Below, piece after piece: positions 14,534 through 63,803 of a stretch of 64,000 nucleotides of DNA (position 1 is the stretch's first letter; each line of letters begins with the position of its first letter). The position numbers and the translations under genes were made by a program. Source of the DNA: Candidatus Levybacteria bacterium RIFCSPLOWO2_01_FULL_42_15 (GTDB taxonomy: Bacteria > Patescibacteriota > Microgenomatia > Levybacterales > UBA12049); assembly GCA_001784055.1 (NCBI GenBank), contig MFOZ01000019.1:18593-82592 (forward strand), written 5' to 3'. Below the pieces are notes generated by a model. That model did no database searches and was not told the origin of the DNA. It was given only the letters and a program-made list of their open reading frames with translations.

Positions 14534-14623
14534 ATATCTATTATATTTCTAAACGTATCTAATCGCAACTTGCTCACTTTAATGATACAATTGGGTTTAA
14601 GTCAATGCAGTAGAATTGAAAAT

Positions 14624-17263: not shown

Positions 17264-17264
17264 T

Positions 17265-40482: not shown

Positions 40483-40507
40483 GGAAAAAAAGTGTTATGA
40501 TACCGCT

Positions 40508-43996: not shown

Positions 43997-44443
43997 ATGA
44001 TGCTTCTTGGACAGTACGAAGCAAAATTAGGAGCAAAAAATAGAATAGCGTTCCCAAAAAAACTAAGAGCAATATTGGGAGACAAGCTTATCATCACGAA
44101 AGGATATGAAAACTCGCTCATTATTGTTTCCGAGAAAGGGTGGAAAGCACTTCTTGAAGGAACAGAGGGAAGGCCGTTTATCCATTCAGAAACCAGAGAT
44201 ACGCAACGATTCATCCTTGGAGGAGCAAGCTTCATGGAGCTTGATAGTAAAGGAAGGTTTATATTGCCTTTATACTTACGAAGCTTTGCAAGAATTAAAG
44301 AGGAAACGATATTCCTAGGCCTATCTCGCTACGTGGAAATGTGGGATAGAGATGTTTGGCTTGAATACACAAAGAACCTTGATAAGCATATTGGATTAAT
44401 TTCAGAGCGGCTGCTTAAGGGAACTGAAGAGAAAAGTGAATAG
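43997..44443 (+). CDS. mraZ: Transcriptional regulator MraZ
   Basis: Duplicated SpoVT/AbrB-like halves (AKLGAKNRIAFPKKLR...; ELDSKGRFILPLYLR). 148 aa. First gene of the dcw cluster. Confidence 0.9.
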   Translation: MMLLGQYEAKLGAKNRIAFPKKLRAILGDKLIITKGYENSLIIVSEKGWKALLEGTEGRPFIHSETRDTQRFILGGASFMELDSKGRFILPLYLRSFARIKEETIFLGLSRYVEMWDRDVWLEYTKNLDKHIGLISERLLKGTEEKSE

Positions 44444-45368: not shown

Positions 45369-45377
45369 AAAACACGC

Positions 45378-45662
45378 ATGAAAATTATATATACGTCTTT
45401 TACTATATTGCTAGTAGTTATTGGCATGTTATCTATTGGTCAGGTTGTTATATCAAACTGGTTATCTACGACAGGTATTACGCTTGGCGCTATTGAGGAT
45501 GAGCTAAAACAATATAAAGAAAAAAATGCGCTTCTTGAAGAGAGGTTTTTGCATGCGTCCTCGCTTACTTCTATTGCATCAACAGCCGCAGAGCTTGGAT
45601 TTGTAGAAAAGAAATCTCGCATTGTTCTTACCGATTCCGTCCCACTTGCCCTTAAACGATAA
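45378..45662 (+). CDS. ftsL: Cell-division protein FtsL-like (single TM + coiled coil)
   Basis: 94 aa, one TM helix followed by a leucine-zipper-like segment. Conserved position between rsmH and ftsI. Confidence 0.5.
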   Translation: MKIIYTSFTILLVVIGMLSIGQVVISNWLSTTGITLGAIEDELKQYKEKNALLEERFLHASSLTSIASTAAELGFVEKKSRIVLTDSVPLALKR

Positions 45663-47338: not shown

Positions 47339-47429
47339 CCTACTTATGAAACTTCTTTAATCACAGCTCCTGTCTCGTTATCTTTCATAACCGATAGAGA
47401 AGAGTAGCTAAAAAAGGTATAATACGGGT

Positions 47430-48689
47430 ATGTGGCAAGAGATTAAGAATGTATATCACTTGCTGGTTGCGGTTGCGGCGCAGGTGTGGTTTGGGTTTCC
47501 GTCAAGAAAGCTTAAGGTGATTGGGGTTACCGGAACCGATGGAAAGACAACTACGGTGAACCTGATTTATCATATACTACACACGTGCGGATATTCGGTC
47601 TCCATGATTTCAACCGTTGGAGCAATCATTAACGGAGAAAAAAAAGATCTTGGTTTTCATGTGACAAATCCTTCCTCATGGCAATTAAATTCCTTTATCA
47701 AGAAAGCGGCAGAAAAAAGTAGCTATCTTGTTCTTGAGGTTACATCTCACGGAATAGATCAGCATCGTATTTTTGGCATTCCTTTTGCAATTGGAGTGAT
47801 GACCAACGTTACAAACGAACATCTAGACTATCACAAAACGTATGATCGCTATCTTCAGACAAAAGTAAAATTGTTAAAACGATCCCGTATTGCCATTGTA
47901 AATCAGGATGACGGATCGCATAAAGCGATTATGCTGCTTCTTAAAGATGGAAACCGAATGGATCGAAAAGTAATTACGTATGGGAAGACGAAGTCTCCCA
48001 TGGTGAATCCGCTTGTCTACGCCTTTAAGACAAAATTGATCGGTAATTTTAATCGATCAAACGAGGGAGCTGCAATCGCAACTGTTCTTGCCCTAAACGT
48101 TAAGGAATCTTGCATCAAAGCCGCTTGTGAAAGCTTTGAGGCTCCAATTGGACGACAACAGGTAGTATATGAAGGCGATTTTACCGTAATGATTGATTTT
48201 GCCCACACCCCCAATGCTATTGAAGAGTTTCTACATTCGATCAAACCTGGTGTCAAGGGGAGACTCATTCACGTTTTTGGAAGCGCGGGAGAGCGCGACA
48301 GAAAGAAAAGACCAGAAATGGGAAAGGCATCAGCTAACTATTCGGATGTTATTATCTTAACTGCAGAGGATCCCCGGTCGGAATCGGTTGCAAAAATCAT
48401 AAACGAGATTGAATCAGGAATCGTTAATAATTCAAAATTCCCCGGCCTCGCTCCGCGAAGCCTCGCCAAAGGCGGGCGAAGCGGGACGGGCAAAATTCAA
48501 AGTGCAAAATTGTTCAAAATATCAAACAGACAGGAAGCAATCAATACTGCAATTAAAATAGCGCAAAAGGGAGATTTTGTTCTCGTTACGGGAAAAGGGC
48601 ATGAGAAGTCTATGAACTTTGGACGCGGAGAAATACCGTGGAGTGAATATGACAGCGTAAAAGAAGCACTTGTAGCAAGAAAATTATGA
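47430..48689 (+). CDS. murE: Mur ligase, MurE-like (UDP-MurNAc-L-Ala-D-Glu:diamino-acid ligase) with very short N-terminal domain and an in-frame repeat-element insertion
   Basis: P-loop VIGVTGTDGKTTT at residue about 33. EDPR (DNPR-like) motif. C-terminal insert KFPGLAPRSLAKGGRSGTGKIQSAK, encoded by the GC-rich element. Confidence 0.7.
   Translation: MWQEIKNVYHLLVAVAAQVWFGFPSRKLKVIGVTGTDGKTTTVNLIYHILHTCGYSVSMISTVGAIINGEKKDLGFHVTNPSSWQLNSFIKKAAEKSSYLVLEVTSHGIDQHRIFGIPFAIGVMTNVTNEHLDYHKTYDRYLQTKVKLLKRSRIAIVNQDDGSHKAIMLLLKDGNRMDRKVITYGKTKSPMVNPLVYAFKTKLIGNFNRSNEGAAIATVLALNVKESCIKAACESFEAPIGRQQVVYEGDFTVMIDFAHTPNAIEEFLHSIKPGVKGRLIHVFGSAGERDRKKRPEMGKASANYSDVIILTAEDPRSESVAKIINEIESGIVNNSKFPGLAPRSLAKGGRSGTGKIQSAKLFKISNRQEAINTAIKIAQKGDFVLVTGKGHEKSMNFGRGEIPWSEYDSVKEALVARKL
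48419..48487. repeat. GC-rich intragenic repeat element (copy inside murE), same family as 32329-32442
   Basis: See the 32329-32442 repeat feature. About 75% GC in roughly 30% GC surroundings. Flanked by aattcaaa(a/g) direct repeats. Confidence 0.85.
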
Positions 48690-50125: not shown

Positions 50126-50142
50126 AAAGAAATTTATAATAT

Positions 50143-51120
50143 ATGAAAGCTTTTTTAAGTGAATTAAAGAAGATATTAGGAGATAGGGTAAAAGAAAACG
50201 AACCGATGAGCCTGCATACTACCTTTAAGATAGGCGGTCCGGCGCGCTATTATATAGACATAGATTCAATAGAGGGTTTAGTAAAAGTAGTAACATTTGC
50301 AAAAAAAAGAAATCTTCCTGTTTTTATTTTTGGAGGCGGGTCAAATATCATAGTTTCCGATAGGGGAATAGATGGCCTTGTTATAAAAAATAACTGCAGG
50401 AAGTTTGAAATTAGAAGCATTGCAGGAAATGTAAAGGGAGCTGTAGCAAAGAGGAGTACCGTATCTATTTATGCGCAGTCCGGGGTAATTATGAATCAAC
50501 TTGTTCGATACACAATTGATCATGGAATGGGTGGGCTTGAATTCCATCTTGGGTTGCCCGGTACGGTTGGAGGAGCGCTTTTTATGAATTCGAATTTTCC
50601 CAAGAAGCAGTCCTACGTTGGCGATTCGTTGCAAAGCGCGACACTGCTTTGTCCTGATGGCTCAATAAAAGAGATAGACGCTTCCTACTTTAGGTTTTCA
50701 TATGATACCAGTATTCTTCAAAAAACCGGTGAAATTATCCTGTCGGCATTGTTTAAGCTTTCCTCTTGTGAAAAAGACGAATTATGGAGGCGAGGAACAG
50801 AAGCTCTTGATTACCGCTTGAGTACTCAGCCAAAAGGAGCTTCCGCCGGGTGCACGTTTCGCAATATTTCAATATCTGAGGCGTTTTCGATTCCTACACC
50901 AAACAATATAACATCGGCAGGATACCTTATTGACAAAGCAGGATTAAAAGGAAGACGGGTAGGGGATGCTATGGTTTCGCCAAAGCATGCAAATTTTATT
51001 CTTAACATGGGGAACGCAAAGGCGTCCGATGTAGTTGAGCTTACAAAATGCATTAAGGAAGAAGTATTTAAGAAGTTTAGTGTAAGTCTCATGTTTGAAG
51101 TACGGGTAATAGAATCTTAA
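50143..51120 (+). CDS. murB: UDP-N-acetylenolpyruvoylglucosamine reductase
   Basis: FAD-binding domain LHTTFKIGGPARYY. C-terminal MurB domain. 325 aa. Confidence 0.85.
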   Translation: MKAFLSELKKILGDRVKENEPMSLHTTFKIGGPARYYIDIDSIEGLVKVVTFAKKRNLPVFIFGGGSNIIVSDRGIDGLVIKNNCRKFEIRSIAGNVKGAVAKRSTVSIYAQSGVIMNQLVRYTIDHGMGGLEFHLGLPGTVGGALFMNSNFPKKQSYVGDSLQSATLLCPDGSIKEIDASYFRFSYDTSILQKTGEIILSALFKLSSCEKDELWRRGTEALDYRLSTQPKGASAGCTFRNISISEAFSIPTPNNITSAGYLIDKAGLKGRRVGDAMVSPKHANFILNMGNAKASDVVELTKCIKEEVFKKFSVSLMFEVRVIES

Positions 51121-51121
51121 T

Positions 51122-52459
51122 ATGGATAAATTTATTGTAAAAGGAGGAAAAGCGTTAGGAGGAGAAGTTGTTGTTTCCGGAGCAAAAAATGTTGCCCTTA
51201 AAACGCTTGTTGCGGCGTGTTTAACAGAAGAAGAAGTGGTAATAGAGAATGTTCCGCTTATCTCAGATTTTTTTGTAATGGTGGATTTGATTAAAGAACT
51301 TGGGGGAACGGTGGCCGTTGAGGACCATACTGCGCGTATAAAGGTTCCTCATATCGTATCTTCCAAGATATCCCTGGATAAAGCAGCAGAAGTAAGAACC
51401 TCGTCCATGTTCTTAGCGCCTCTTCTTGCGCGGCTTGGTAGAGCATCTATTCCTAACCCGGGGGGATGCAGAATAGGAGCACGGCCAATAGATCGAACCG
51501 TTGAGGGCATTAAAGCGTTAGGAGCAGATATTGCATATGAGAGTGGAGATGGATACTTTCACGCAAAGATAAAATCTGGTGCGAGACTTAAAGGAGTTTC
51601 TTATCGATTCGAAAAAAGTTCCCATACGGCAACAGAAACGCTTATGATTGCTTCTTCGTGTGCTTATGGGAAAACGGTTCTTGAAAATGCAGCGCAAGAG
51701 CCGGAGATTGACGAACTCATAGCTCTTTTAAACGCGATGGGTGCTCATATTCGCAGAATTTCTCCCAGAACAATTGAGATTATTGGAGTGAATAAGCTTC
51801 ATGGAGCGCGCTTTCGAATAGGTCCTGACAGAAACGAAGTGGTTACTTTTGCAATTGCCGCATACATCACCCAAGGAAATATTTTAGTAAGAGAAGCAAA
51901 AGCGTCTTACATACAAGAATTTCTTGATTTACTACAAGAGGCAGGCGCAGAATTTAAAGAAGAAAAAAATGGAATGCGTTTCTTTTCTAACGGTTCTCTT
52001 AAAGCGACAAGCATTATTACTTGTTCTTACCCTGGTTTCATGACTGATTGGCAAGGACCATGGGCAGTTCTCATGGCAAAAGCACAAGGAGAGTCAATAA
52101 TTCATGAGACGATATATGAAAACAGATTTGGATATGTGAGTGAATTGTTAAAAATGGGAGCAAGAATTGATCTGTTTACTCCTTCCGTCAGAAACCCAAG
52201 AGCGTTTTACAATTTTACTCTTCCTCAAAAACATGATCCTTACCACCACGCCATAAAAATTTATGGCCCGGCAAAATTACATAATGCGGCTGTACAGATT
52301 TCGGATTTACGAGCGGGAGCAACTCTTGTGCTTGCTGCTCTTGCCGCCTCAGGAGAAAGTGTTATATTTGGAGCCCATCACATTGATCGCGGGTACGAGC
52401 GATTTGAAGAAAGACTGCAAAGCGTTGGAGCGGATATCAAAAGAATGGTCGATGAATAA
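51122..52459 (+). CDS. murA: UDP-N-acetylglucosamine 1-carboxyvinyltransferase
   Basis: MDKFIVKGGKALGGEVVVSGAKNVALK. Catalytic Cys region NPGGCRIGARPID. 445 aa. Confidence 0.9.
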   Translation: MDKFIVKGGKALGGEVVVSGAKNVALKTLVAACLTEEEVVIENVPLISDFFVMVDLIKELGGTVAVEDHTARIKVPHIVSSKISLDKAAEVRTSSMFLAPLLARLGRASIPNPGGCRIGARPIDRTVEGIKALGADIAYESGDGYFHAKIKSGARLKGVSYRFEKSSHTATETLMIASSCAYGKTVLENAAQEPEIDELIALLNAMGAHIRRISPRTIEIIGVNKLHGARFRIGPDRNEVVTFAIAAYITQGNILVREAKASYIQEFLDLLQEAGAEFKEEKNGMRFFSNGSLKATSIITCSYPGFMTDWQGPWAVLMAKAQGESIIHETIYENRFGYVSELLKMGARIDLFTPSVRNPRAFYNFTLPQKHDPYHHAIKIYGPAKLHNAAVQISDLRAGATLVLAALAASGESVIFGAHHIDRGYERFEERLQSVGADIKRMVDE

Positions 52460-53216
52460 TATGAAAAGAGAAAGAAAAATTGGCGCCATAATTTTAGCGG
52501 CTGGGAAAGGCAAAAGAATGAAAATGCGACAGATTAACAAAGTAGCAATTCATATTGCGAATAAACCCATGGTTCTGCATACGGTACATATGTTGGAAAA
52601 GATAGCACTATCCCCAATTGTCGTTGTTATTGGGTTTGCTAAAGAATCAGTTATGAAGGCTCTTGCGGGAACATCGGTAATCTTTGCCGAGCAGAAAAAA
52701 CGATTAGGAACCGGTCGCGCAGCTCTTTGTGGATTGACTAAGCTCCCCAAAGATGTAGCTGATGTTCTAATTCTCAATGGTGATGATTCTGCGTTTTATA
52801 CCCCAAAGATCATAAAAGAGTTATACCAGAGACATCTCTTCTCTCAAGCGGCAATTACATTTCTTACGATTCAACTTGATAATCCCTTTGGACTTGGGAG
52901 AGTAATAAGAAATGAAAAAGGGAGTGTTGTTGCAATTGTTGAAGAAAAAGACGCAACAAGAGAAGAAAGAAAGATTAAAGAAATTAATCCGGCATGCTAC
53001 ATTTTTCGATCTGATTTTTTAAGAAACTTTATTAAACGAATTCCAAAAAGCTCGGTGACAGGGGAATATTATTTAGTGAGCTTAATAGAAATTGCTTTCA
53101 AGAACAATAAGAAAATAGAAACGCTTATAAAGAATTCCATCCTATGGAGAGGGGTCAATACGAGAGAAGAGCTTGCTTTGGCAGAACAACTCCTGCATCA
53201 AGTGAAGTCAATATGA
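52452..53216 (+). CDS. GlmU-like sugar-1-phosphate uridylyltransferase, nucleotidyltransferase domain only (no LbH acetyltransferase domain)
   Basis: GAIILAAGKGKRMK signature. About 250 aa. Ends before any hexapeptide-repeat domain. The start overlaps the murA stop; the Met at 52461 is an alternative start. Confidence 0.7.
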   Translation: MNNMKRERKIGAIILAAGKGKRMKMRQINKVAIHIANKPMVLHTVHMLEKIALSPIVVVIGFAKESVMKALAGTSVIFAEQKKRLGTGRAALCGLTKLPKDVADVLILNGDDSAFYTPKIIKELYQRHLFSQAAITFLTIQLDNPFGLGRVIRNEKGSVVAIVEEKDATREERKIKEINPACYIFRSDFLRNFIKRIPKSSVTGEYYLVSLIEIAFKNNKKIETLIKNSILWRGVNTREELALAEQLLHQVKSI

Positions 53217-53656
53217 AACAACAGATTTACATCGAACAACTTAAAAAATACTCTTTAGATGCAGTCACCGCTTTAAATAGTTTACTCATGCAATTAAACA
53301 ATCGCGCAACACCACTTACCAAAAGCGCCATTAGGGAGATGATGGACTCACCGGCAACTCGATTATTTGTAGCGAGAAGATTAGACAATAACCAAATAAT
53401 TGGCATATTGGCCATGATTGTATATCGCATCCCATACACAAAAAAAGGGTTGCTTGAAGATTTTGTAGTTGATGAAAAATATAGAAGATGCGGCATTGGT
53501 ACAAAGCTTGTTAAATTCGCTATTGATAAAGCGCAAAAAGAAGAACTTGCCTATCTTGATTTTACTTCTCGTCCAACAAGAGAAGCCGCAAGCAAGCTAT
53601 ATCAACGCCTTGGTTTTAAGAAACGAGATACCAATGTTTACCGAATAGGGCTATAG
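53213..53656 (+). CDS. GNAT-family N-acetyltransferase
   Basis: Acetyl-CoA binding motif FVVDEKYRRCGIGTKLV. ATGA start/stop overlap with the upstream GlmU-like gene. Confidence 0.75.
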   Translation: MKQQIYIEQLKKYSLDAVTALNSLLMQLNNRATPLTKSAIREMMDSPATRLFVARRLDNNQIIGILAMIVYRIPYTKKGLLEDFVVDEKYRRCGIGTKLVKFAIDKAQKEELAYLDFTSRPTREAASKLYQRLGFKKRDTNVYRIGL

Positions 53657-53657
53657 T

Positions 53658-54134
53658 ATGCAGTTGAAAAATAAAGTCATTCTTTTTGACATAGATTATA
53701 CGCTGTTTAATACAGACATCTTTAAAGAGACAAAATTGCAAAAGTACTCACTTTACGAAGAAGTTAAAGAGGCGCTTAATAATCTTTCAAAGATTGCTCG
53801 GCTTGGTATTTTTTCAGAAGGAGAAATTAGACTTCAAAAGACAAAATTGGAGAGCACAAATATCGCGGATTATTTTCAAAATGATTTAGTTCATATAATG
53901 ACTAGAAAGGATGATGAAATGGAAGATATAATTACTAGATACACGGACACAGCGCTGTTTCTTGTTGATGACAAGATAGATATTTTATATAAGACAAAGA
54001 AGCTTTTTCCTTCTGTTTTTACCGTTTGGATAAAAAGGGGAAAGTATGCAAAGTCACAGAAGCCTATTGATGGGTTTGAGCCTGATGCTATAATAAAAAC
54101 TTTGCAAGAAGTTATTCCTGTTGTTTCTACCTGA
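53658..54134 (+). CDS. HAD-like hydrolase (small)
   Basis: DxDxT motif (VILFDIDYTLF). LVDDK motif. Confidence 0.5.
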   Translation: MQLKNKVILFDIDYTLFNTDIFKETKLQKYSLYEEVKEALNNLSKIARLGIFSEGEIRLQKTKLESTNIADYFQNDLVHIMTRKDDEMEDIITRYTDTALFLVDDKIDILYKTKKLFPSVFTVWIKRGKYAKSQKPIDGFEPDAIIKTLQEVIPVVST

Positions 54135-54148
54135 TACTATTTTTTACT

Positions 54149-55909
54149 ATGTGTGGAATATTCGGTTACGTCGGAAAACAAAATAATGCGGCCCAGATTG
54201 TTCTTGAAGGACTAAGGCTTCTGGAATATCGCGGGTATGATTCATGGGGAATTGCGGTAAAAAGCGGAAAGAAGCTTATGGTGAATAAGCAGGTGGGGAA
54301 AATAGAATCCGCCAAAACGACTCTTTCTGCAAGCTTTCTTGGTATTGGGCATACAAGGTGGGCGACTCATGGAGGAGTGACAGAAAACAATGCTCATCCT
54401 CATCTTGACTGCAAACAAGAAATAGCACTGGTGCATAACGGGATTGTAGAAAATTTTGTTGCGTTAAAAGAAGAATTGATAATTAGAGGACATAGTTTTA
54501 ATTCGGAAACAGACACAGAGGTAATTGTTCATCTTATCGAGGAGTATTTAAAAAAAGAAGGATTTGCCTCATCGGTGCGTGATTCATTTAATAGGCTTAA
54601 AGGACTAAACGCAATTGTTGTTGCCTACGCTGTCTCTCGTCAAATTATTGCCTGCAAAACAGGATCTTCCTTGGTGGTTGGTCAAAAAAATAGCGATTTC
54701 TATATTGCCTCGGACGCATTGGGAATAACAGACCACACAAAGAAGCTTTTCTTTCTTAAAGATGGAGAAATGGTCATACTGGGAGAAAAGTTGCAACTCA
54801 TAAGCATTGCAAACGGTAAAAAGTTAAAAGCAAATTTCGAAACAATACATTGGAAGCAGGAAGACTCCAAAATTGGAAATTTTAATCACTTTATGGAGAA
54901 GGAAATTTATGAACAACCACGCGTTGTGCGTACCATAGCAAGAACTGCCGATCAGGATATTATTTCATTAAGCAGAACAATTAAACGAGCTAGGGGAACT
55001 TTTTTTATAGGCGCAGGAACGGCCTTTCATGCCTGCCTTGCGGGGACATACCTATTCTCCGGAATCGCAAAAATCCATGTTAATACAGCGGTCGCATCTG
55101 AATTTAATTATCTGGAGGATTTTTTAACCAAAGAAAGTCTCATTATCGCGCTTTCCCAATCGGGGGAAACGATAGATGTTCTTGAGCCTCTCAATAGAGC
55201 GAAGGGGAAAGGAAGCAGAATTGTGGCGCTTACCAATGTTTTGGGCTCTTCGCTGTATAGGCTTGCTGATCACTCCCTTATTTTGGGTGCGGGAGTTGAA
55301 AAAGCAGTAGCTTCAACAAAGGCATATACTGCAAAGCTTGCTCTTTTACTTATGCTTGCGCACGCAATGAATGGAGAGATAAAAAAAGCAAAGAAAAATC
55401 TTCTTGAAACGTCAAAAGAAATACAAAGACTCCTCAGCGCTCCAAGCAGAAAAAACATACGAAAGATTGCGTTGGTTCTTAAGTCATCCGAGCATATCTA
55501 TACTATTGGGAGAGGAGTATCTTATCCAACAGCACTGGAAGCCGCCCTTAAGATTAAAGAGGTAAGCTATATACACACAGAAGGACTTGCGGGAGGAGAG
55601 TTAAAACATGGAACGCTCGCGCTTGTTGAAAAAGGAACGCCGTGTATTGTATTTGCTCCCAATGATGACACCTATGAGGCAATGATTTCCAACGCGATTG
55701 AGATCAAATCAAGAGGAGGAGTAATCATTGGCATAAGTACTAAAAAGTCTTCTGTTTTTGACTACTTTATAGAAGTTCGCGACATGGGATGGGCACGTAT
55801 TATCGCTCAAATTATCCCCGCACAGCTTTTGGCATACTATTTAGCGGTAGAGAGAGGATGCGATCCAGATAAACCTCGCAATTTAGCAAAAAGCGTAACC
55901 GTAAAGTAA
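54149..55909 (+). CDS. glmS: Glutamine--fructose-6-phosphate aminotransferase (isomerizing)
   Basis: MCGIFGY Ntn-Cys. Two SIS domains. C-terminal ...KPRNLAKSVTVK. Confidence 0.9.
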   Translation: MCGIFGYVGKQNNAAQIVLEGLRLLEYRGYDSWGIAVKSGKKLMVNKQVGKIESAKTTLSASFLGIGHTRWATHGGVTENNAHPHLDCKQEIALVHNGIVENFVALKEELIIRGHSFNSETDTEVIVHLIEEYLKKEGFASSVRDSFNRLKGLNAIVVAYAVSRQIIACKTGSSLVVGQKNSDFYIASDALGITDHTKKLFFLKDGEMVILGEKLQLISIANGKKLKANFETIHWKQEDSKIGNFNHFMEKEIYEQPRVVRTIARTADQDIISLSRTIKRARGTFFIGAGTAFHACLAGTYLFSGIAKIHVNTAVASEFNYLEDFLTKESLIIALSQSGETIDVLEPLNRAKGKGSRIVALTNVLGSSLYRLADHSLILGAGVEKAVASTKAYTAKLALLLMLAHAMNGEIKKAKKNLLETSKEIQRLLSAPSRKNIRKIALVLKSSEHIYTIGRGVSYPTALEAALKIKEVSYIHTEGLAGGELKHGTLALVEKGTPCIVFAPNDDTYEAMISNAIEIKSRGGVIIGISTKKSSVFDYFIEVRDMGWARIIAQIIPAQLLAYYLAVERGCDPDKPRNLAKSVTVK

Positions 55910-55912
55910 ACA

Positions 55913-56629
55913 ATGAAAAAAACAATCCTTATTCTTCATGGATGGGGGGTTAACGGAGAAAAATACCAAATCATAGTAGGTATGTTAAAAGAGAAGGGAT
56001 GGGTAGCGTTTTCTCCAGACCTTCCGGGATTTGGAAAGGAAAAATTGTTGAAAAAGACTATGAACGTAGACGATTATGTTGATTTTGTAAGAGATTTTAT
56101 AAGGAAGAAAAAGCTATCCAACATTGTTCTTGTTGGGCATTCATTTGGAGGAAGAATTGCCATTAAATTAGCAGCATCAGGAGAAGGGACAATAACAGGT
56201 CTTATTCTCACAGGGTCTGCTGGTATTAAGCCCAAACTCGCTTTGTATAAACGATTTATTATGTATATAGCAATTTTATTAGGAGAATTATTTCGTTTTC
56301 CGCTGTTAGCAAATGCAAAAAATATTCTGCGCAAGATTCTTTATTTTGCCATAGGGGAATGGGATTATTATAACGCGGGGGACATTAGAGAAACGTTTAA
56401 AAAAGTCATTGCCGAAGACCTTATTGATTATCTTCATAACATACGTGTCCCTACGCTTTTGGTTTGGGGCGCAAAAGATAACGTTATCCAACTGATCTAT
56501 GGGAAGATGATGAAAGAGAGAATTTCTGCGTCAGCGCTTGTTGTTGTTGAGGGCGCAGGTCATAAGCTGCCTTACGCGAATCCTAAGGAATTTATTAATG
56601 CAATTATGCCATTTTTACAGAAAATATGA
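55913..56629 (+). CDS. Alpha/beta-fold hydrolase
   Basis: ILILHGWG. Nucleophile elbow GHSFGG. 238 aa. Confidence 0.7.
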   Translation: MKKTILILHGWGVNGEKYQIIVGMLKEKGWVAFSPDLPGFGKEKLLKKTMNVDDYVDFVRDFIRKKKLSNIVLVGHSFGGRIAIKLAASGEGTITGLILTGSAGIKPKLALYKRFIMYIAILLGELFRFPLLANAKNILRKILYFAIGEWDYYNAGDIRETFKKVIAEDLIDYLHNIRVPTLLVWGAKDNVIQLIYGKMMKERISASALVVVEGAGHKLPYANPKEFINAIMPFLQKI

Positions 56630-58302
56630 GCATACTTTACGCAGCCACAAGCACACTTTTCTTTGTCTGGATTTCCAGAAATATTTTATACTGGGTACAC
56701 CTTTGGCAAATAAAAGAGTATCGGTGGGATCGGCTTTCGGTTCATCTTAGAGAGACGGTTCAAGGAAGGTCGCTTTTTTTCTCACCTCTTCTTCTTTTCA
56801 AAGTAGTACTTATAGGTGCATTTATCCTGGTAATCCAAAAACAGCTTTCTCTTTCTTTATACCACAGCGCAATCACGTTTGTGTTTGCCTTGCAATTTAG
56901 CTCTGTGGTAAAAGAAGTAGGGAGAAAAACCATAAAGATCCCTAAGCCAACGATAAAGGCAGTGATTATTAGTGGATTTTCTCTCTTTATCCTTTTCTCT
57001 CTTTTTTCTCTTCCGCTGTTGGATCGATTTGCATGGATTCTTTTAATCGATCGCCTGCTTCCTGCTGTTGTTTTAGTTGCGACACTTATCATGTCGTTTC
57101 CAAGCGGGCTTTACTATGATTGGAAAATCGCTCGGGCGATAAGGCTTTTAAGGAAGCAGAAAAAGCTTATCGTAATGGGCATTACCGGAAGTTATGGAAA
57201 AAGCTCAACAAAAGAATATCTTGCGCAGCTTTTGAGAACAAAATTTTCTCTTATTGCTACTTTCGGTACCCAAAATACGCCCATTGGTTTGGCAAACACA
57301 ATTCTTGAGAAAATGCAAGACAAAACGGCTATTTTTGTTGCGGAGATGGGTGCATACAAAAGAGGGGAGATTGCACAGCTTGCCCAAATGGTTCATCCAA
57401 CAATAGGAGTTCTTACCGGTATCAACGCGCAACATTTCTCTCTCTTTGGTAGCATTGAAAATACGATTGATGCAAAGTATGAACTTATTGAGTCGATTTC
57501 TCCTAACGGTTTATGTCTTTTTAACGGGAATAACGTTTACACGTACGAATTGTGGAAACGGGCATTGCGTGAAAATCGTAACGCAGTATTATATAGGGTT
57601 CTAACGACTAATTCCTTTTCCGAAGAACAATTTAAACAGGAGCATGGGATTATTGCCTATAACGCGCGTATTTCTTCGCGTAGTGTTTCCTTTGATGTTG
57701 TTCTGAAGAAGAAAGGGAAACCAAGAATAAAAATAGAGAGTCTGGGAGCGCCAATTGGTGGGATTCACACACTTGAAAATCTTCTTCCCGCAATTTATGT
57801 TGCGTATATTTTAGAAATGAAACCTTTTGAAATTAAAGAAGCGTTATCCCTGCTTGTTTCGCCTGTTCATACCATGAGCATTCTTAGATCTTTTTTGGGA
57901 GTAATTCTTCTAGACAATACGCATAATACAAATCCTCGTGGTATTGAGGCTGCGGTACTATTACTTAAGCAGTATCTAAGACAGAAAAAAAGACTATGTG
58001 TTTTTGTATTGCAACCAATGATTGAATTGGGTAGCAGAGGGAAAGAGGAGCATAGGATAGCGGGAAGAGCTATTGGTGCGGTTTGTTCTTATCTTTTTCT
58101 AACAAATAAGAATTTTTATCAAGAAATCGTAAAAGGAGTTCGGGATAGCGGAGGAAAATGTAAGGTAAAAATAGCAAGCCCTCAAATCATTGCGAGTTTT
58201 GTCAAGACCCTGACGAAAGATGATATTATGTATTTTGAGGGAAGAGAGACCGCGTCTTCTTTGGTAAAGATTCTTAAGCGAGATCCAAAAACAGATATAT
58301 GA
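56626..58302 (+). CDS. murF: UDP-MurNAc-tripeptide--D-Ala-D-Ala ligase (MurF) with about 170-aa N-terminal polytopic membrane domain
   Basis: Mur ligase core ITGSYGKSSTKE...VAEMGAYKRGEI...NAQHFSLFGSIENT, as in MurF. The first about 170 aa contain about 5 hydrophobic helices. Confidence 0.7.
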   Translation: MSILYAATSTLFFVWISRNILYWVHLWQIKEYRWDRLSVHLRETVQGRSLFFSPLLLFKVVLIGAFILVIQKQLSLSLYHSAITFVFALQFSSVVKEVGRKTIKIPKPTIKAVIISGFSLFILFSLFSLPLLDRFAWILLIDRLLPAVVLVATLIMSFPSGLYYDWKIARAIRLLRKQKKLIVMGITGSYGKSSTKEYLAQLLRTKFSLIATFGTQNTPIGLANTILEKMQDKTAIFVAEMGAYKRGEIAQLAQMVHPTIGVLTGINAQHFSLFGSIENTIDAKYELIESISPNGLCLFNGNNVYTYELWKRALRENRNAVLYRVLTTNSFSEEQFKQEHGIIAYNARISSRSVSFDVVLKKKGKPRIKIESLGAPIGGIHTLENLLPAIYVAYILEMKPFEIKEALSLLVSPVHTMSILRSFLGVILLDNTHNTNPRGIEAAVLLLKQYLRQKKRLCVFVLQPMIELGSRGKEEHRIAGRAIGAVCSYLFLTNKNFYQEIVKGVRDSGGKCKVKIASPQIIASFVKTLTKDDIMYFEGRETASSLVKILKRDPKTDI

Positions 58303-59540
58303 TACGCCCAATTGCCATTGGTCTCTCTCCAAATACGACTTTTTTGGATGTTCTATTTTCAATCCGCTTATTAATTCAGCCATGGATATACCAAAAAGGG
58401 AACTATATCAAGAAGCTGGAAGATTGGTTTTTACGCTATTTTCATGCCGATGTAGCGGTATCTTTTGATAGTGCCCGCATTGCTCTTTTTTATACTTTAA
58501 AATCTCTTGGGATAAAAGAAGGAGATGAGGTTCTTCTGCAAGCATTTACCTGCGTTGCGGTTCCCAACGCGATAATGTGGGCAAAAGCAAAACCAGTGTA
58601 CGTTGATATTGCCAACTCTTACACCATTGATACAAAAGATCTGGAGAAAAAAATAACTTCTTCCACCAAAGCAATCATTGTGCAGCATACGTTTGGAATC
58701 CCGGCGGAGATGGATCAAATTGTAGGTATTGCAAAAAAGCACAATCTTTTTGTCATAGAGGATTGTGCTCATACGATTGGAGGAATGTATAAAGAACAAA
58801 AGCTTGGATCGCTTGGAGACGTGGGTATTTTTAGTTTTGGCAGGGATAAAGCCTTTTCTTCTGTATTTGGAGGGATTGTGATTACCTCGCGCAAGAATAT
58901 TGGAAAACAGTTAAAAGTCTTCCAAGGCAATTTATCACACCCATCTATTTTATGGATTGCGCAGCAACTTTTCCATCCGGTTGCCCTTTCTCTCGTTTTT
59001 CCTTTATACAACCTTTTTTTAGGAAAAATGTTCCTTTTATCCTTGCAGCTGTTTGGAATGCTTTCGCTTCCTTTAGAGACTGAAGAAAAACAGGGAAAAT
59101 TCCCCCATAATTTGGGGAAAAAAATGCCAAATGCCCTGGCAGCATTAGCTCTCTTTCAACTTAAAAGAATTTCGCAGTTTAATGCAAGAAGAAAAGAAAT
59201 CGCAAGCGAATACGTCCAAAAGATTAACGTACTATACTCCGGTACATTGTATAAAAATATAATTCCTTTTTTACGTTTTCCGCTTGTTGTTGAAAAAAGA
59301 GAAGAGATGCTTAATTTCTTCAGATCCAAAAAAATCTATGTTGGGAAATGGTATTCTGAAGTCGTAGATCCAAAGGGCGTTGATTTAAAACAAGTTTTTT
59401 ATAAAACAGGTTCTTGTCCAAATGCAGAATATATAGCAAAGCATATTCTTAATGTACCTACATATCCTACCATGACGGATTCTGACGTTAAAAACGTAAT
59501 TAATGTATTTCAAAAATATGATCAAGATCATAGAAATTGA
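58299..59540 (+). CDS. DegT/DnrJ/EryC1-like PLP-dependent aminotransferase (embedded in dcw cluster)
   Basis: VLLQAFTCVAVPNAIMWA...IVQHTFGIPAEMD...IEDCAHTIGG...FSFGRDKAFSS (Lys). Confidence 0.6.
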   Translation: MIRPIAIGLSPNTTFLDVLFSIRLLIQPWIYQKGNYIKKLEDWFLRYFHADVAVSFDSARIALFYTLKSLGIKEGDEVLLQAFTCVAVPNAIMWAKAKPVYVDIANSYTIDTKDLEKKITSSTKAIIVQHTFGIPAEMDQIVGIAKKHNLFVIEDCAHTIGGMYKEQKLGSLGDVGIFSFGRDKAFSSVFGGIVITSRKNIGKQLKVFQGNLSHPSILWIAQQLFHPVALSLVFPLYNLFLGKMFLLSLQLFGMLSLPLETEEKQGKFPHNLGKKMPNALAALALFQLKRISQFNARRKEIASEYVQKINVLYSGTLYKNIIPFLRFPLVVEKREEMLNFFRSKKIYVGKWYSEVVDPKGVDLKQVFYKTGSCPNAEYIAKHILNVPTYPTMTDSDVKNVINVFQKYDQDHRN

Positions 59541-60537
59541 CGAGAAAAAAATTTGGGATGAGTTTTTAGATAAAAAAGAAATCCAGTTTTTTCCCTTATT
59601 TCAGTCATGGAATTGGGGAGAAGTTCAAAAGCAAACCGGAGACGAGCTGTTGCGCGTTGGAGCGTATAAAAACAATAAGCTAGCTGCGGTGTGTCAGATT
59701 ATTGACATACATGCGAAACGAGGACATTATCTGCATCTTCGTCATGGACCGGTACTTGTGCCCTTTGATTCAGCCGTGTTTGATGCGCTACTCGTCTATG
59801 TTAAAAAAGTCGCTTGTCAAAAGAAAGCTTCATTCGTTCGACTCAGTCCGCTCGTTGAAAAAAGTCAGGCAGACAAAGCTATGTTAAGCGCAGGAGGTAT
59901 GATAGGCGCACCAATTCACAACATGGATGCGCAGGTATGTTGGGTTTTAGACATCACAAAGCCGGAAGAACAACTCCTTAAAGAAATGCGCAAGTCTCAC
60001 CGCTATCTAATCCGTAAGGCACAAGGCATGAACATTACCATTAGAAAAACAAAAGGAGCCTCAAGTATCAATATCTTCTTGGAAATCTACAAAGATTTGT
60101 CTGGGAGGAAACATTTTGTTCCCCATAAGGGAATAAAAGAAGAGCTTGACGTCTTTGGAAAAGAAGATCAGGCATTATTGTTTTTGGCCGAATATAAACA
60201 GAAGGTCATTGGGGGAACGCTTATTTTGTTTGTTGGAAATAATGCCATTTATCACCATGGGGCATCTGTTGAAGGCTATAGAGATGTACCTGTTTCATAT
60301 CTTTTACAGTGGGAAGCAATTTTAGAAGCCAAGAGAAGAGACAAAAAGCTCTATAATTTTTGGGGAATCGCACCATCTGATTCCTCCAGACATCCATGGC
60401 AGGGATTAACGCTTTTCAAAACAGGTTTTGGGGGAGAAAAAAAGGAGTTTCTTCACGCGCAAGATATTCCCCTCTCTTTTTGGTACGGGAAAAACTACTT
60501 GGTGGAATACATCCGAAAACTACAAAGAGGCTATTAA
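59518..60537 (+). CDS. FemAB-family peptidoglycan interpeptide-bridge aminoacyltransferase
   Basis: FemAB-like N-terminus (FFPLFQSWNWGEVQ). GNAT-like duplicated fold, about 340 aa. Start may be 59503. Confidence 0.7.
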   Translation: MIKIIEIDEKKIWDEFLDKKEIQFFPLFQSWNWGEVQKQTGDELLRVGAYKNNKLAAVCQIIDIHAKRGHYLHLRHGPVLVPFDSAVFDALLVYVKKVACQKKASFVRLSPLVEKSQADKAMLSAGGMIGAPIHNMDAQVCWVLDITKPEEQLLKEMRKSHRYLIRKAQGMNITIRKTKGASSINIFLEIYKDLSGRKHFVPHKGIKEELDVFGKEDQALLFLAEYKQKVIGGTLILFVGNNAIYHHGASVEGYRDVPVSYLLQWEAILEAKRRDKKLYNFWGIAPSDSSRHPWQGLTLFKTGFGGEKKEFLHAQDIPLSFWYGKNYLVEYIRKLQRGY

Positions 60538-60557
60538 GTTTGATATAATATACGTCT

Positions 60558-61568
60558 ATGATGCGGCTTTTAGGGCTTACTATAATGTCGTTTGTTATCA
60601 GTGGGACTTTGTTTGTGCCATTTATCGATTTTCTCTACAAAATAAAGCTCAGAAGAAGAATACAAAAAACAAAAGATATCTTTAACAACAACACTCCTCT
60701 TTTTGATCGTTTTAACGCGTGGAAGGTGGGAACGCCATTCGGAGGAGGGCTTCTTATTGTAGTGGTTGTTCCCGTATTAACACTTTGGGCATATGGTCTT
60801 TTTGAAACAAAAATATCATTCTGGCAACTATTCGTTTTGCTCTTTTCTTTTATTGGATTTGGACTTCTTGGTCTTTATGATGATCTTAAAAAACTTACCA
60901 ATGAAAAAAAATCCGTTGTTTTTGGATTGAGGTTTCGTCATAAGTTTTTCATCCAATGGATTCTCGCATTTTTAATCGCCTCTGTTCTTTATTTTCAGCT
61001 TGGATTTGATTTCATTTTCATCCGCGGATTTGGACTCGCAAACCTAGGATTTCTTTTCATCCCGTTTGCGGCGTTTGTGATTGTTTCTTTTGTAAACGCA
61101 TTTAATATTGCGGATGGACTTGATGGGTTAGCGTCCGGTCTTTTTCTCATCTGCATGGTTGCGTTTTTGGCAATCTCCTCCTCGCAACTGGATAACTATC
61201 TGGGAATTTTTATCGCAATTATTTTAGGGAGCGTTGCGGCATTCCTTTATTTTAATATTTATAAAGCGAGGCTTTGGCTTGGAGATACGGGATCTCTTGC
61301 TCTTGGAGCAGTGCTTGCGGTTGTTGGACTTTTGACAGGAAAAACGATTGCGCTTGCCGTCATAGGAGGAATTTTTGTTCTTGAAATTGGCTCATCGCTT
61401 GTGCAAATTCTTGGAAAAAAGATTCTTGGAAAAAAGATTCTTCCCGCAGCCCCTTTCCATCTGTATTTGCAATACAGGGGATGGGAAGAGCCAAAAATTG
61501 TGATGAGAGCTTGGCTTTTGGGATTTCTTATGGCAGTTTTAGGATTGTATATAGCATTCGCCGTGTAA
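60558..61568 (+). CDS. mraY: Phospho-N-acetylmuramoyl-pentapeptide transferase
   Basis: NAFNIADGLDGLASG. DTGSLALGA. 10 TM helices. Confidence 0.9.
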   Translation: MMRLLGLTIMSFVISGTLFVPFIDFLYKIKLRRRIQKTKDIFNNNTPLFDRFNAWKVGTPFGGGLLIVVVVPVLTLWAYGLFETKISFWQLFVLLFSFIGFGLLGLYDDLKKLTNEKKSVVFGLRFRHKFFIQWILAFLIASVLYFQLGFDFIFIRGFGLANLGFLFIPFAAFVIVSFVNAFNIADGLDGLASGLFLICMVAFLAISSSQLDNYLGIFIAIILGSVAAFLYFNIYKARLWLGDTGSLALGAVLAVVGLLTGKTIALAVIGGIFVLEIGSSLVQILGKKILGKKILPAAPFHLYLQYRGWEEPKIVMRAWLLGFLMAVLGLYIAFAV

Positions 61569-61584
61569 AAAATATCTGCCCATC

Positions 61585-62652
61585 ATGAAGCGCATAGATA
61601 TTTCACTTCTTTTTGTTGTTATTCTCTTATCCTTTTTTGGTCTTCTTATGATTTATGAGGCATCTTCGTTTATTGCTTTTCGAGATTTTGGAGACAAATA
61701 TCACTATCTTAAAGATCAATCTCTTTGGATTCTTCTGGGACTTAGTGGTTTGGTATTTTTCTCCCTTTTTGATTATCGAAAGCTTTATCTATTTTCCTTA
61801 CCGTTTCTTATTGCTGCAATAATCTTGCTTTCATTGGTGTTTGTGCCTGGGGTTGGGGTTCTCTTGCACGGTGCTCGACGATGGATAGACGCAGGTCCTT
61901 TTTTTATCCAGCCATCAGAATTTGTAAAGCTTGCCTTAACTATTTATCTTGCCGCCTGGTTTTCTCATAAAGAAAAAGGAAGATTTTTTGCGTTTTTGCT
62001 CCTGCTTGGGCTTGTCATTTTCCTTATCATGTTGCAACCTGATATGGGAACGGCAGCCATTATCCTTCTTGAAGCAATCGTTATGTATTTTTTGTCAGGA
62101 GGAAACATTATCCATTTTCTTTTTCTTCTTCCGGCTATCGCAGCGGGCGGGTTTTTTCTTATAAAAATAGAGCCCTATCGTTTTGAGCGGTTTATTGCGT
62201 TTCTCAGCTTGGGAAAATCACTGGAAGGCTCCTCATATCATGTTAAACAAATACTCATAGCACTTGGAATGGGTGGGCTTACGGGAGTTGGCTTTGGAAA
62301 TTCATTGCAGAAATATGCCTATCTTCCAGAAAATACTACCGATTCAATCTTCGCAATTATCGCGGAAGAAGTTGGTTTTCTTGGCTCAACGCTTGTTATT
62401 ATCTGCTTTATGATTCTTGCCGCGAGAGGATTTTTTATTGCGTTTCACAGTCGGACGATGTTTGGAAAACTTCTTGCTTCGGGAATAACAGCATTTCTTT
62501 CTGCTCAAGCGCTCATTAATTTAGGAGCTCAAACCGCGCTTGTTCCTCTTACTGGTGTTCCTCTTCCTTTTATCTCCTACGGCGGATCCGCTCTTATTGT
62601 AGATTTATGTTCGATTGGAATTCTACTCAATATATCCAAAGAACGAGTATGA
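61585..62652 (+). CDS. ftsW: SEDS-family peptidoglycan glycosyltransferase FtsW
   Basis: FtsW/RodA topology and conserved blocks (IQPSEFVKLALTIYLAAW; PDMGTA; SYGGSAL). Sits between mraY and murG. Confidence 0.85.
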   Translation: MKRIDISLLFVVILLSFFGLLMIYEASSFIAFRDFGDKYHYLKDQSLWILLGLSGLVFFSLFDYRKLYLFSLPFLIAAIILLSLVFVPGVGVLLHGARRWIDAGPFFIQPSEFVKLALTIYLAAWFSHKEKGRFFAFLLLLGLVIFLIMLQPDMGTAAIILLEAIVMYFLSGGNIIHFLFLLPAIAAGGFFLIKIEPYRFERFIAFLSLGKSLEGSSYHVKQILIALGMGGLTGVGFGNSLQKYAYLPENTTDSIFAIIAEEVGFLGSTLVIICFMILAARGFFIAFHSRTMFGKLLASGITAFLSAQALINLGAQTALVPLTGVPLPFISYGGSALIVDLCSIGILLNISKERV

Positions 62653-63803
62653 AACTTCTCATTGTTGCCGGAGGAGGAGGACATTTTTCCGCAGCGTTTT
62701 CGGTTATTCAGAAGCTTCCTAAAGACGTCAGCGTATTGGTGGTTGGAAGAAAGCATTCGTTTGAAGGAGATTCAGCGCTTTCGCTAGAGTATCAGACATG
62801 CAGCAGCAACAATATTCCTTTTGCTACAGTAGGTGCGGGGAGACTGCAAAGAGCATTTACTAAGCACACGATAGCGTCTCTTGTCAAAACCCCGTTTGGA
62901 TTTGCGCAATCCCTTAAGATTCTTAAAAAGTTTAATCCTGATATAGTTCTTTCGTTTGGAGGATATGTATCTCTGCCCGTAGTTGTGGGAGCACGGTTAT
63001 CTGGAATACCTATTGTTGTGCATGAACAGATTCCCGCAGGAGGACTTTCTAACAAAATCGCATCGTTAATAGCAGACAGAGTGTGTATATCGTGGAATGA
63101 ATCATATGATTTTTTCCCTAGAGAAAAAACTGTGCTCACGGGTAATCCTATTCGTAGGGAAATTTCTCGTACTCAGAGCAGTGTCTTATTAGACGGGGCA
63201 ACGGAGGTTTTTCTCCGTGATCAAGCTCCTTTTATCTATATTACCGGAGGATCTGGGGGTTCTCACTTTCTTAATGTTCTTGTTGAAGAGCTAATTCCTG
63301 ATCTTACTGAAAAATATAAAATAATTCATCAAACAGGAGGCTCAAATGAGTATAAAGATTTTGAGCGGCTTTTATATCTTAAGAATAATCTTCCTCATCA
63401 AATAAGACATAGATATATTCCCATAAGATTTTTAGATGCGTCCCAAATTGGATGGATTCTTTCTCACGCTTCTCTTGTGGTTGGTCGGTGCGGTATCAAT
63501 ACCGTATGCGAGCTTTTGTATTGGGGTGTTCCGTCTCTTCTTATCCCTCTTCCTTATGCGCAAGGTAACGAACAAGAAAAAAATGCTCTGTTGGTAAAAG
63601 AAGCGGGATTCGGAGAAATTCTTGCACAGAAAAACGCAACAAAAACAGAGCTCAAAAAACAAATACATCATATGATTCTTAAAAATAATGCATATAAGTT
63701 TCATGCTCGCAAGGGAAGAAAGAGACTGATACCAAACGCATCAGAAAACATTATAAGCGTAGTTATCGCTGTTTATGAGAAAAGAAAGAAACAAGAAAAG
63801 TAA
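62649..63803 (+). CDS. murG: UDP-GlcNAc:Und-PP-MurNAc-pentapeptide GlcNAc transferase
   Basis: MKLLIVAGGGGHFSAAFSV. C-terminal GGSGGS...E motif region. ATGA overlap with ftsW. The ORF-track start at 62607 is an upstream extension. Confidence 0.85.
   Translation: MKLLIVAGGGGHFSAAFSVIQKLPKDVSVLVVGRKHSFEGDSALSLEYQTCSSNNIPFATVGAGRLQRAFTKHTIASLVKTPFGFAQSLKILKKFNPDIVLSFGGYVSLPVVVGARLSGIPIVVHEQIPAGGLSNKIASLIADRVCISWNESYDFFPREKTVLTGNPIRREISRTQSSVLLDGATEVFLRDQAPFIYITGGSGGSHFLNVLVEELIPDLTEKYKIIHQTGGSNEYKDFERLLYLKNNLPHQIRHRYIPIRFLDASQIGWILSHASLVVGRCGINTVCELLYWGVPSLLIPLPYAQGNEQEKNALLVKEAGFGEILAQKNATKTELKKQIHHMILKNNAYKFHARKGRKRLIPNASENIISVVIAVYEKRKKQEK

Follow-up and report, generated by a model that had tools for sequence, protein, structure and literature searches.

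The closest described counterparts of the locus analyzed here include FemX of Weissella viridescens (FemX_Wv; PDB 1NE9/4II9), a UDP-MurNAc-pentapeptide:L-Ala transferase, and FemX and FemA of Staphylococcus aureus (PDB 6SNR, 1LRZ), which are lipid II:glycine glycyltransferases. Lys305 of FemX_Wv is the sole catalytic residue identified in this family (PMC12945691). The FemAB-like fold and its catalytic lysine also occur in Orf11, Sba18 and Sbb17, which act on the amino sugar streptothrisamine, and in DhpH-C, which acts on an aminophosphonate; these enzymes show that the family can acylate amines delivered by a preceding enzyme, amino sugars included. The subject of this study is a DegT-like pyridoxal phosphate (PLP) enzyme and a FemAB-family transferase encoded between murF and mraY in the division and cell wall (dcw) operon of Candidatus Levybacteria bacterium RIFCSPLOWO2_01_FULL_42_15, on a stretch of 64,000 nucleotides of contig MFOZ01000019.1 (positions 18,593 to 82,592), hereafter called the window. 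An earlier note, made from the sequence alone, had drawn attention to this gene pair and had read it as a hint of a modified stem peptide or bridge, possibly containing an unusual diamino acid.

Known members of the DegT family include the sugar aminotransferases PseC, LegC, ArnB, QdtB, perosamine synthase and the PglE-like Pcryo_0638. The bifunctional MurF/alanine racemase (NF008897) is a precedent for a PLP enzyme fused to MurF, and MurT/GatD (PMC6085368) is a precedent for a Mur-type ligase with a nitrogen-handling partner; the partner is of the Alr type in the former and a glutaminase in the latter, whereas in the present locus it is of the DegT type. A survey of Mur chimeras described MurE-MurF, MurG-MurC, MurC-MurB, MurC-Ddl, MurD-FtsW and MraY-MurG proteins, with no MurF-aminotransferase among them (PMC10214165).

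The DegT-like and FemAB-type genes are members of a tightly overlapping, probably translationally coupled four-gene cassette (alpha/beta-hydrolase, murF, DegT, FemAB) located where murF is expected in the dcw operon, and because the same murF-DegT-FemAB arrangement recurs in dozens of divergent genomes, it goes far beyond chance. A literature search on these enzymes in the Candidate Phyla Radiation (CPR)/Patescibacteria returned no description of this gene arrangement. Within the literature searched, neither the four-gene cassette nor the DegT subfamily with its insert and its coupling or fusion to a membrane-anchored MurF has been described; the FemX-like protein is a new member of a known family. 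CPR bacteria account for a very large share of bacterial diversity and, to our knowledge, their cell-wall chemistry has not been determined. A cassette present in hundreds of species at the heart of the division and wall operon offers four small proteins as a testable handle.

Organization and conservation of the cassette

The gene pair that the earlier note had placed between murF and mraY is confirmed by open reading frames (ORFs) spanning exactly 58299-60537, with Pfam matches, although that note had missed the four-gene cassette, the membrane-anchored MurF and the insert of the DegT subfamily. The principal features, in window coordinates, are:

55913..56629, + strand: alpha/beta-hydrolase, 238 aa, with a GHSFGG nucleophile elbow (Pfam Abhydrolase_1/6, Hydrolase_4); cassette gene 1
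56626..58302, + strand: MurF-like ligase, 558 aa (TIGR01143, Mur_ligase_M, Mur_ligase_C)
58299..59540, + strand: DegT/DnrJ/EryC1/StrS-family PLP enzyme, 413 aa, intact (PF01041)
58926..59117, + strand: DegT subfamily-specific insert, about aa 210-273, two hydrophobic helices
59503..60537, + strand: FemABX-family transferase, intact, 344 aa from the first ATG or 339 aa from 59518 (PF02388)
60558..61568, + strand: MraY (TIGR00445, 179.6 bits; Glycos_transf_4), the next pathway step
47430..48689, + strand: MurE without domain 1 (TIGR01085, 346 bits)
48686-50125: murC (Pfam Mur ligase match)

The genes form a single compact operon in the order mraZ, rsmH, ftsI, murE, murC, murB, murA, GlmU-type uridylyltransferase, GNAT, HAD protein, glmS, alpha/beta-hydrolase, murF, DegT, FemAB, mraY, ftsW, murG. 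Neighboring cassette genes overlap, by 4 nt at both the hydrolase/murF and the murF/DegT junctions and by 23-38 nt at the DegT/FemAB junction, and a gap of 20 nt separates FemAB from mraY; database homologues of the FemAB protein use the start site at 59518 (339 aa). The hydrolase reaches no NCBIfam equivalog cut-off, its top model being the EstV lipase (99.7 against 300).

When the DegT alignment was scanned against one genome per species (GTDB), relatives were found in at least 581 species. Neighbors were counted around the best 80 DegT loci, with the loci having enough flank as denominators and with ORFs labelled by means of the window's own proteins; these loci belong to Levy-, Gottesman-, Woese-, Portnoy- and Gribaldobacteria and to unclassified Patescibacteria. 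FemAB lies no more than 2 kb downstream of DegT in 68/70 loci, often with overlapping stop and start codons, and a MurF-like gene is located directly upstream of DegT in 61/69, a 4-nt overlap being the commonest junction. The hydrolase stands ahead of murF in 58 of the 65 loci that could be scored, and mraY comes after FemAB in 43 of 65. The reverse test, which started from FemAB on metagenome contigs, placed DegT upstream of it in 38 of 43 cases. When not beside mraY, the cassette adjoins ftsQ or ftsZ and remains among division and wall genes. At three loci (L165-L167) it lies away from mraY amid unrelated genes (toxin-antitoxin, TGT), and in two Parcubacteria loci (L046 and L071; Portnoybacteria and Gribaldobacteria) the DegT-FemAB pair stands alone amid unrelated genes, without other wall genes.

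A large lineage shows the order seryl-tRNA synthetase (SerRS), hydrolase, murF, DegT, FemAB, ftsQ. DegT is missing from at least six related loci of the SerRS-hydrolase-murF-FemAB-ftsQ type (L114, L121, L128, L141, L143, L154), in which murF abuts FemAB, and it therefore looks accessory. SerRS was seen directly upstream of the cassette in L065, L072 (1396-2646), L084, L110, L115, L116, L122 and L126-L129, and also in L139, L141, L145, L150, L154, L157, L159 and L162.

Between DegT and FemAB, loci of the Gottesmanbacteria group encode a membrane protein with a CvpA-CAP domain (~322 aa, 12 loci), a metallo-beta-lactamase (MBL)-fold hydrolase (~210 aa, 21 loci), or both. Insertions of one or both kinds were noted in L023, L055, L057, L063, L066, L075, L078 and others. 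They were considered as candidates for a keto-sugar enzyme and rejected, being CvpA-CAP and MBL-fold proteins and not oxidoreductases.

The membrane-anchored MurF-like ligase and its fusions

The ligase encoded upstream of DegT is nearest to MurF (E 6.6e-51, against 1e-13 or weaker for other Mur-type families). No other MurF candidate is encoded in these operons, which otherwise contain murA, B, C, E, mraY, murG, ftsW and ftsI. On the murF model TIGR01143 it scores 173.6 bits, under the cut-off of 288.6, with an alignment that begins at profile position 66. Its central and C-terminal domains are present, with Mur_ligase_M at residues 186-393, and the N-terminal UDP-binding domain of MurF is replaced by a transmembrane (TM) domain of ~170 aa (window 56626-57150) with three TM segments by hydropathy; Pfam gave no match for residues 1-175. 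All 60 of the 60 MurF orthologues encoded beside DegT have 2-7 predicted N-terminal TM segments, and the motif WQ(L/I)KEY(R/H)xxR of this domain is kept in every lineage examined, DegT-less ones included. An N-terminus of the TM type was also seen in L005-L084 and L110-L162. The ligase of MurT/GatD is likewise without a UDP-binding domain and acts on lipid II. The membrane-anchored MurF, together with the MurE without domain 1, suggests that substrate handling in this Mur pathway is unlike the textbook scheme.

MurF and DegT also occur as a single polypeptide. In P0396 (876 aa), a TM-MurF part (residues 12-448) is joined to a DegT part (463-861); four variants of this fusion, all of 876 aa and 93.7-99.5% identical, were found on nine contigs from at least three samples, in the context hydrolase, MurF-DegT, FemAB and unrelated flanking genes (L165 8001-10631; also L166 and L167). 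A second, independent MurF-DegT fusion of 1073 aa, with a different linker, is located on an Anaerolineae-labelled contig of 60% GC (L062 10-3231) and is directly followed by the N-terminus of a FemAB gene. Because this fusion and FemAB lie on a 60% GC contig, the cassette extends beyond low-GC CPR genomes, and the presence of the module in an Anaerolineae-labelled genome is relevant to the proposed kinship of CPR and Chloroflexota or to gene transfer linking the two groups. A DegT-FemAB fusion (P0362, 769 aa) was seen in one record only, on a 5-kb contig, and may reflect a frameshift artefact.

The DegT-like PLP enzyme

Judged by its PLP residues and its fold, the cassette DegT is predicted to retain PLP-dependent aminotransferase activity, and it belongs to a private subfamily. 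It matches PF01041 (DegT_DnrJ_EryC1) in two stretches (E 2.6e-67, 228 bits, threshold 19.8); the Schiff-base Lys184 (FSFGRDK) and the PLP-binding Asp155 (IEDCAH) are invariant in 49 sequences, and Lys184 aligns with the corresponding lysine of 7b0m and QdtB. The AlphaFold2 model (predicted local distance difference test score, pLDDT, 90.5) adopts fold type I, and a Foldseek search with it returned ArnB, KabA/NtdA, perosamine synthase, WbpE and QdtB about equally (TM-score ~0.75, E ~1e-25). The protein stays under every NCBIfam equivalog cut-off (top model PseC, 163.7 vs 423.5), and its best family scores are with the UDP/GDP-HexNAc-4-ulose and UDP-pentos-4-ulose aminotransferases PseC, LegC and ArnB. 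All PDB sequence matches (54/54) are sugar or cyclitol aminotransferases or dehydratases. At the family level, the enzyme falls with PseC, LegC, ArnB, QdtB and perosamine synthase, a placement that the earlier note had named as evidence against its own proposal.

With the DegT sugar aminotransferases the cassette enzyme shares the Pfam family, fold type I, the Schiff-base lysine and the PLP aspartate. Its N-terminal large domain scores ~135 bits to a solved sugar aminotransferase, and its C-terminal domain is much more divergent. In contrast to those enzymes, it has a hairpin instead of the nucleoside diphosphate (NDP) loop, is encoded in the dcw operon, is fused to MurF in two unrelated lineages, and is accompanied by no dehydratase, dehydrogenase or N-acetyltransferase partner.

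The insert begins 26 residues past the catalytic lysine and forms a conserved hydrophobic helical hairpin of 55-64 residues (helices 217-236 and 240-251), replacing the NDP-binding loop of the partner subunit. Its conserved residues are P215, W219, Q222, Q223, H226, P227, Y237, G242, K243, S256, P258 and E263, of which W219, Q222, Q223, H226, K243 and E263 are the invariant polar residues of the insert helices. In the equivalent region of Pcryo_0638, the phosphates and the uracil of UDP are bound by Lys215 and Tyr229 of the partner subunit, which lie at Lys185 +30 and +44 (PMC8040287). Because the insert sits where this partner loop binds UDP, the substrate grip of the DegT subfamily appears to have been rebuilt at the insert. 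The insert was not found in QdtB, in 7b0m or in the canonical DegT paralogue of the window. Searched alone against 1.84 billion representative proteins, it retrieved 84 proteins, essentially all DegT-like and carrying it at ~200-290; its origin as a module borrowed from another family was rejected, as it is found in this DegT subfamily only. The canonical paralogue (14483-15742), which belongs to a glycan cluster and has no insert, is 28% identical to the cassette DegT, and the latter is distinct from ordinary sugar metabolism.

The FemX-like transferase

The transferase matches PF02388 (FemAB) with E 2.6e-33 and 115.9 bits (threshold 24), and its AlphaFold2 model (339 aa, pLDDT 91.4) has the tandem-GNAT fold. 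The leading Foldseek match is S. aureus FemX 6snr (E 5.5e-21, TM-score 0.81), followed by FemX_Wv (TM-score 0.77), FemA and, in complex with the amino sugar streptothrisamine, Sbb17/Sba18 (E ~2e-17). Kinship was judged by profile bit scores: a profile of 44 homologues gave 73 bits with 6snr, 55 with FemA, 37 with FemX_Wv and 32 with Sbb17. F300 and K301 are invariant in the 44 sequences and correspond to the FK pair in S. aureus FemX and FemA, the two proteins aligned here, the alignment with FemX_Wv stopping short of this stretch.

With FemX_Wv the cassette protein has in common the family, the tandem-GNAT fold, the size (335 vs 339-344 aa), the lack of a coiled-coil arm, and equivalents of the catalytic Phe-Lys and of Tyr254. 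Among the acceptor-site residues of FemX_Wv, Tyr254 corresponds to the invariant Y245 and Arg211 to K204, and the Lys36 region is only approximately aligned, to Q37 or K38. The two proteins differ in that their identity is ~18%, Arg211 is replaced by Lys204, and the cassette FemX is encoded alongside a membrane-anchored MurF, a hydrolase and a PLP enzyme. The best sequence-profile and structural matches are S. aureus FemX and FemA, which share the C-terminal FK, and a membrane-proximal context such as theirs is plausible for the cassette FemX too. Identity with them is 16-18%, and their own helical arm of ~68 residues (about 235-302 of 6snr) is absent, query residues 227-230 spanning 6snr 234-303, which corresponds to an architecture of the FemX_Wv type. 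Orf11/Sba18/Sbb17 and DhpH-C, in contrast, reach 28-32 bits and belong to actinomycete secondary-metabolite clusters, whereas the present gene lies in a core division operon.

By its fold, its invariant Phe-Lys pair and its conserved place after MurF, the FemX-like protein is a credible candidate for an aminoacyl-tRNA-dependent transferase in a peptidoglycan-precursor context, in line with the role that the earlier note had given it; the catalytic residues, whose absence that note had regarded as decisive, are retained. The most likely function of the protein is branching of the stem peptide, given that it stays linked to MurF where DegT has been lost and that its closest kin are wall enzymes. 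The order murF, femX, mraY fits a FemX_Wv-like action on the finished nucleotide precursor. In the SerRS-linked lineage, there is a hint that serine may be the donor. No tRNA gene, sought as a dedicated tRNA for FemX, was found in the 64-kb window.

Proposed role of the cassette and alternative explanations

We tentatively propose that the cassette finishes and tailors the peptidoglycan precursor near the membrane, before MraY, with FemX branching the stem peptide and DegT performing an accessory tailoring step on the UDP-linked precursor; this reading may be right, but we hold it with less than even confidence. The FemX-like enzyme would transfer an amino acid from aminoacyl-tRNA to a free amine of the finished stem peptide, most probably that on the side chain of residue 3, giving a branched precursor for indirect cross-links; acceptor, donor and the choice between a UDP- and a lipid-linked substrate are what we infer. 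DegT would work in physical association with MurF and, to judge by its family, would most likely have an accessory role, transaminating a carbonyl group of a wall precursor that is UDP-linked and of the HexNAc type. If DegT does act on the precursor, this would be a new type of reaction in a pathway thought to be fully catalogued, and a potential source of lineage-specific targets or markers.

Several observations weigh against this proposal. The FemX-like protein scores 46.4 bits on the FemX_Wv equivalog NF047883 and, being far below the cut-off of 500, is a family member and not a FemX_Wv orthologue. The cassette, both as it stands in the window and at about 160 related loci, was found to contain no 4,6-dehydratase or 3-dehydrogenase that would make a keto-sugar, the short-chain dehydrogenase/reductase (SDR) enzymes of the window belonging to a separate glycan cluster 40-55 kb from the cassette. 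With the canonical nucleotide-clamping loop gone, even an NDP-sugar substrate is uncertain, and we know of no peptidoglycan modification that needs a sugar aminotransferase. Moreover, an insert-bearing DegT (41% identity) occurs alone on an Anaerolineales-labelled contig of 52% GC (L070 1121-2374), where its neighbors are an EamA transporter, MTHFR and an ABC transporter and neither MurF nor FemAB is encoded close by; because this copy stands alone, the chemistry of DegT need not depend on MurF or FemX.

A broader possibility, which we consider doubtful, is that late precursor synthesis has been re-wired in Microgenomates, other CPR bacteria and some Chloroflexota, with a TM-MurF without UDP domain, DegT and FemX forming a complex that includes a PLP step on the precursor unseen in murein synthesis. 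This step could be the amination of a precursor carbonyl or the addition of a non-canonical residue at the terminus or on a branch, perhaps while the precursor is lipid-linked. Alternatively, DegT might make an amine (an amino sugar or another amino compound) that the FemX-like enzyme then acylates from aminoacyl-tRNA, which would match the usual aminotransferase-then-N-acyltransferase logic of sugar pathways. The frequent FemAB gene after DegT (68/70 loci, often with overlapping stop and start) and the persistence of the pair alone in L046 and L071 are consistent with such a sequence of reactions, as is the structural match of the FemX model to Sbb17/Sba18 with streptothrisamine. In DhpH, a PLP-dependent N-terminal domain is fused to a FemAB-like domain. 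The tRNA-dependent chemistry of Orf11/Sba18, with an amino-sugar acceptor, and of DhpH-C provides a parallel (PMC12945691). However, at least six loci keep hydrolase-murF-FemAB-ftsQ without DegT, so that FemX has an acceptor independent of DegT, and the Gottesmanbacteria group has genes between the two. The FemX profile scores higher with Fem enzymes of the wall (73 bits) than with Sbb17 (32 bits), the keto-forming enzyme is absent from the cassette, and the one DegT-FemAB fusion that would favor joint action (P0362) is a single record and possibly a frameshift artefact. We therefore regard this explanation as unlikely.

The tightest partner of DegT is MurF, as seen in the 4-nt overlaps and two independent fusions, and DegT might instead supply an amino acid to it, as a re-purposed fold-type-I PLP enzyme that uses free amino or keto acids; as a racemase or transaminase it would make D-Ala, D-Ser or some non-canonical residue and pass this on to the ligase at the membrane. 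PLP enzymes can stand in for racemases in reduced genomes, VanT is a membrane-bound analogue, and NF008897 describes a bifunctional MurF/alanine racemase. The replaced nucleotide-binding loop, the EamA metabolite transporter next to the stand-alone DegT copy, and the lack of a keto-sugar maker in the cassette, whereas keto acids are always available, point the same way, as does the absence of ddl, alr and murI from the 64-kb window and 7 kb downstream, an absence that applies to these 64-71 kb. Against it, every characterized DegT member acts on sugars or cyclitols, the 54/54 PDB matches and the top structural matches being such enzymes, and DegT is absent from some lineages that keep MurF, in which an essential supply would need a replacement; on balance, such a supply role is improbable. 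It is the only form in which the earlier idea of an unusual amino acid survives. The diamino acid suggested before is the least supported variant, because DegT partners MurF (4-nt overlaps, fusions), which adds the C-terminal dipeptide, and not MurE, which adds the diamino acid. It is further weakened by the sugar/cyclitol aminotransferase character of DegT in sequence and fold, and by the at least six related loci that keep murF-FemAB without DegT; in our reading, DegT makes no diamino acid for MurE. The other part of that suggestion, a modified stem peptide or bridge, stays reasonable by way of FemX.

The cassette could also have no part in peptidoglycan synthesis and build or decorate another envelope molecule, for example a secondary polymer or lipid carrying an aminoacylated amino sugar, while hitch-hiking in the dcw operon. 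The three loci at which the cassette lies away from mraY amid unrelated genes (L165-L167), a ligase that scores under the MurF cut-off and has no UDP-binding domain, and the activity of the FemAB family elsewhere (the PEP-CTERM-associated FemAB of NCBIfam, natural products) would allow for this. Nevertheless, the ligase is far nearer to MurF than to other Mur-type families (E 6.6e-51 vs 1e-13 or weaker) and is the only MurF candidate in operons otherwise equipped with murA, B, C, E, mraY, murG, ftsW and ftsI, and the cassette, when away from mraY, adjoins ftsQ or ftsZ. We consider a role outside peptidoglycan very improbable.

Other peptidoglycan genes in the operon

The absence of MurD from the window, pointed out in the earlier note, was confirmed: a Pfam scan of essentially all ORFs of at least 120 aa gave three Mur ligases only (murE, murC, murF) and no MurD, Ddl, Alr or MurI in the window. 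Genes for ddl, alr and murI were likewise not found in the 7 kb downstream. No murD was found in the dcw operon from mraZ to ftsZ (43997-63803 plus L001 11068-17204), contigs of the same species carrying murG, a 154-aa ORF, ftsA and ftsZ but no murD. With the MurD of L017 as query, no known Levybacteria contig appeared among the best 120 matches, which is suggestive only. A role of DegT/FemAB as a replacement for MurD was rejected, since both coexist with a canonical MurD, encoded between mraY and ftsW, in eight related loci.

MurE scores 346 bits on TIGR01085, above the cut-off, with an alignment from profile position 70 and hence without domain 1, which agrees with the very short N-domain noticed earlier. 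It is 419 aa long in the window and 390-399 aa in three relatives (L021, L058, L083), and the ftsI-murE gap is 92 nt. MurE carries EDPR, which we take to resemble the DNPR of MurE enzymes that add diaminopimelate (DAP).

A set of genes for UDP-GlcNAc supply is located within the dcw operon at 52449-55909, between murA and the hydrolase gene. It encodes a lone GlmU-like uridylyltransferase domain (255 aa), a small HAD-like protein and GlmS, and a separate GNAT acetyltransferase stands where the left-handed beta-helix domain of GlmU usually is. Glycyl-tRNA synthetase is encoded at 40475-41893, about 2 kb ahead of mraZ.

Surrounding glycan region and database records

Positions 1-38000 of the window form a glycan region encoding RmlC, RmlD, an SDR epimerase/dehydratase, a sugar C-methyltransferase, a formyltransferase and a polysaccharide deacetylase. 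The canonical DegT (14483-15742), a PglD-like acetyltransferase (17229-17930), a GHMP kinase and a SIS protein are also encoded there, along with many GT2/GT4 glycosyltransferases, a PMT_2 protein and a Bac_transf initiating transferase. Three ORFs in or beside the glycan cluster gave no Pfam match (15752-17263, 503 aa; 18847-21300, 817 aa; 26996-30133, 1045 aa), and a 663-aa DUF4012 protein is encoded at 37946-39937, also in or beside the cluster. The window edge (78-2214) carries a partial ATP-grasp ORF followed by a thiamine-pyrophosphate enzyme; the ATP-grasp ORF is of the Ter-operon type and is not a D-Ala-D-Ala ligase.

The title 'uncultured Gammaproteobacteria' is borne by many species-representative records whose GC is ~37% and whose gene content is clearly that of CPR bacteria (L010-L014, L017, L019, L021, L022 and many others), and further such records bear the titles 'Woesearchaeota' or 'Pacearchaeota'; they look like mislabelled records of metagenome-assembled genomes.

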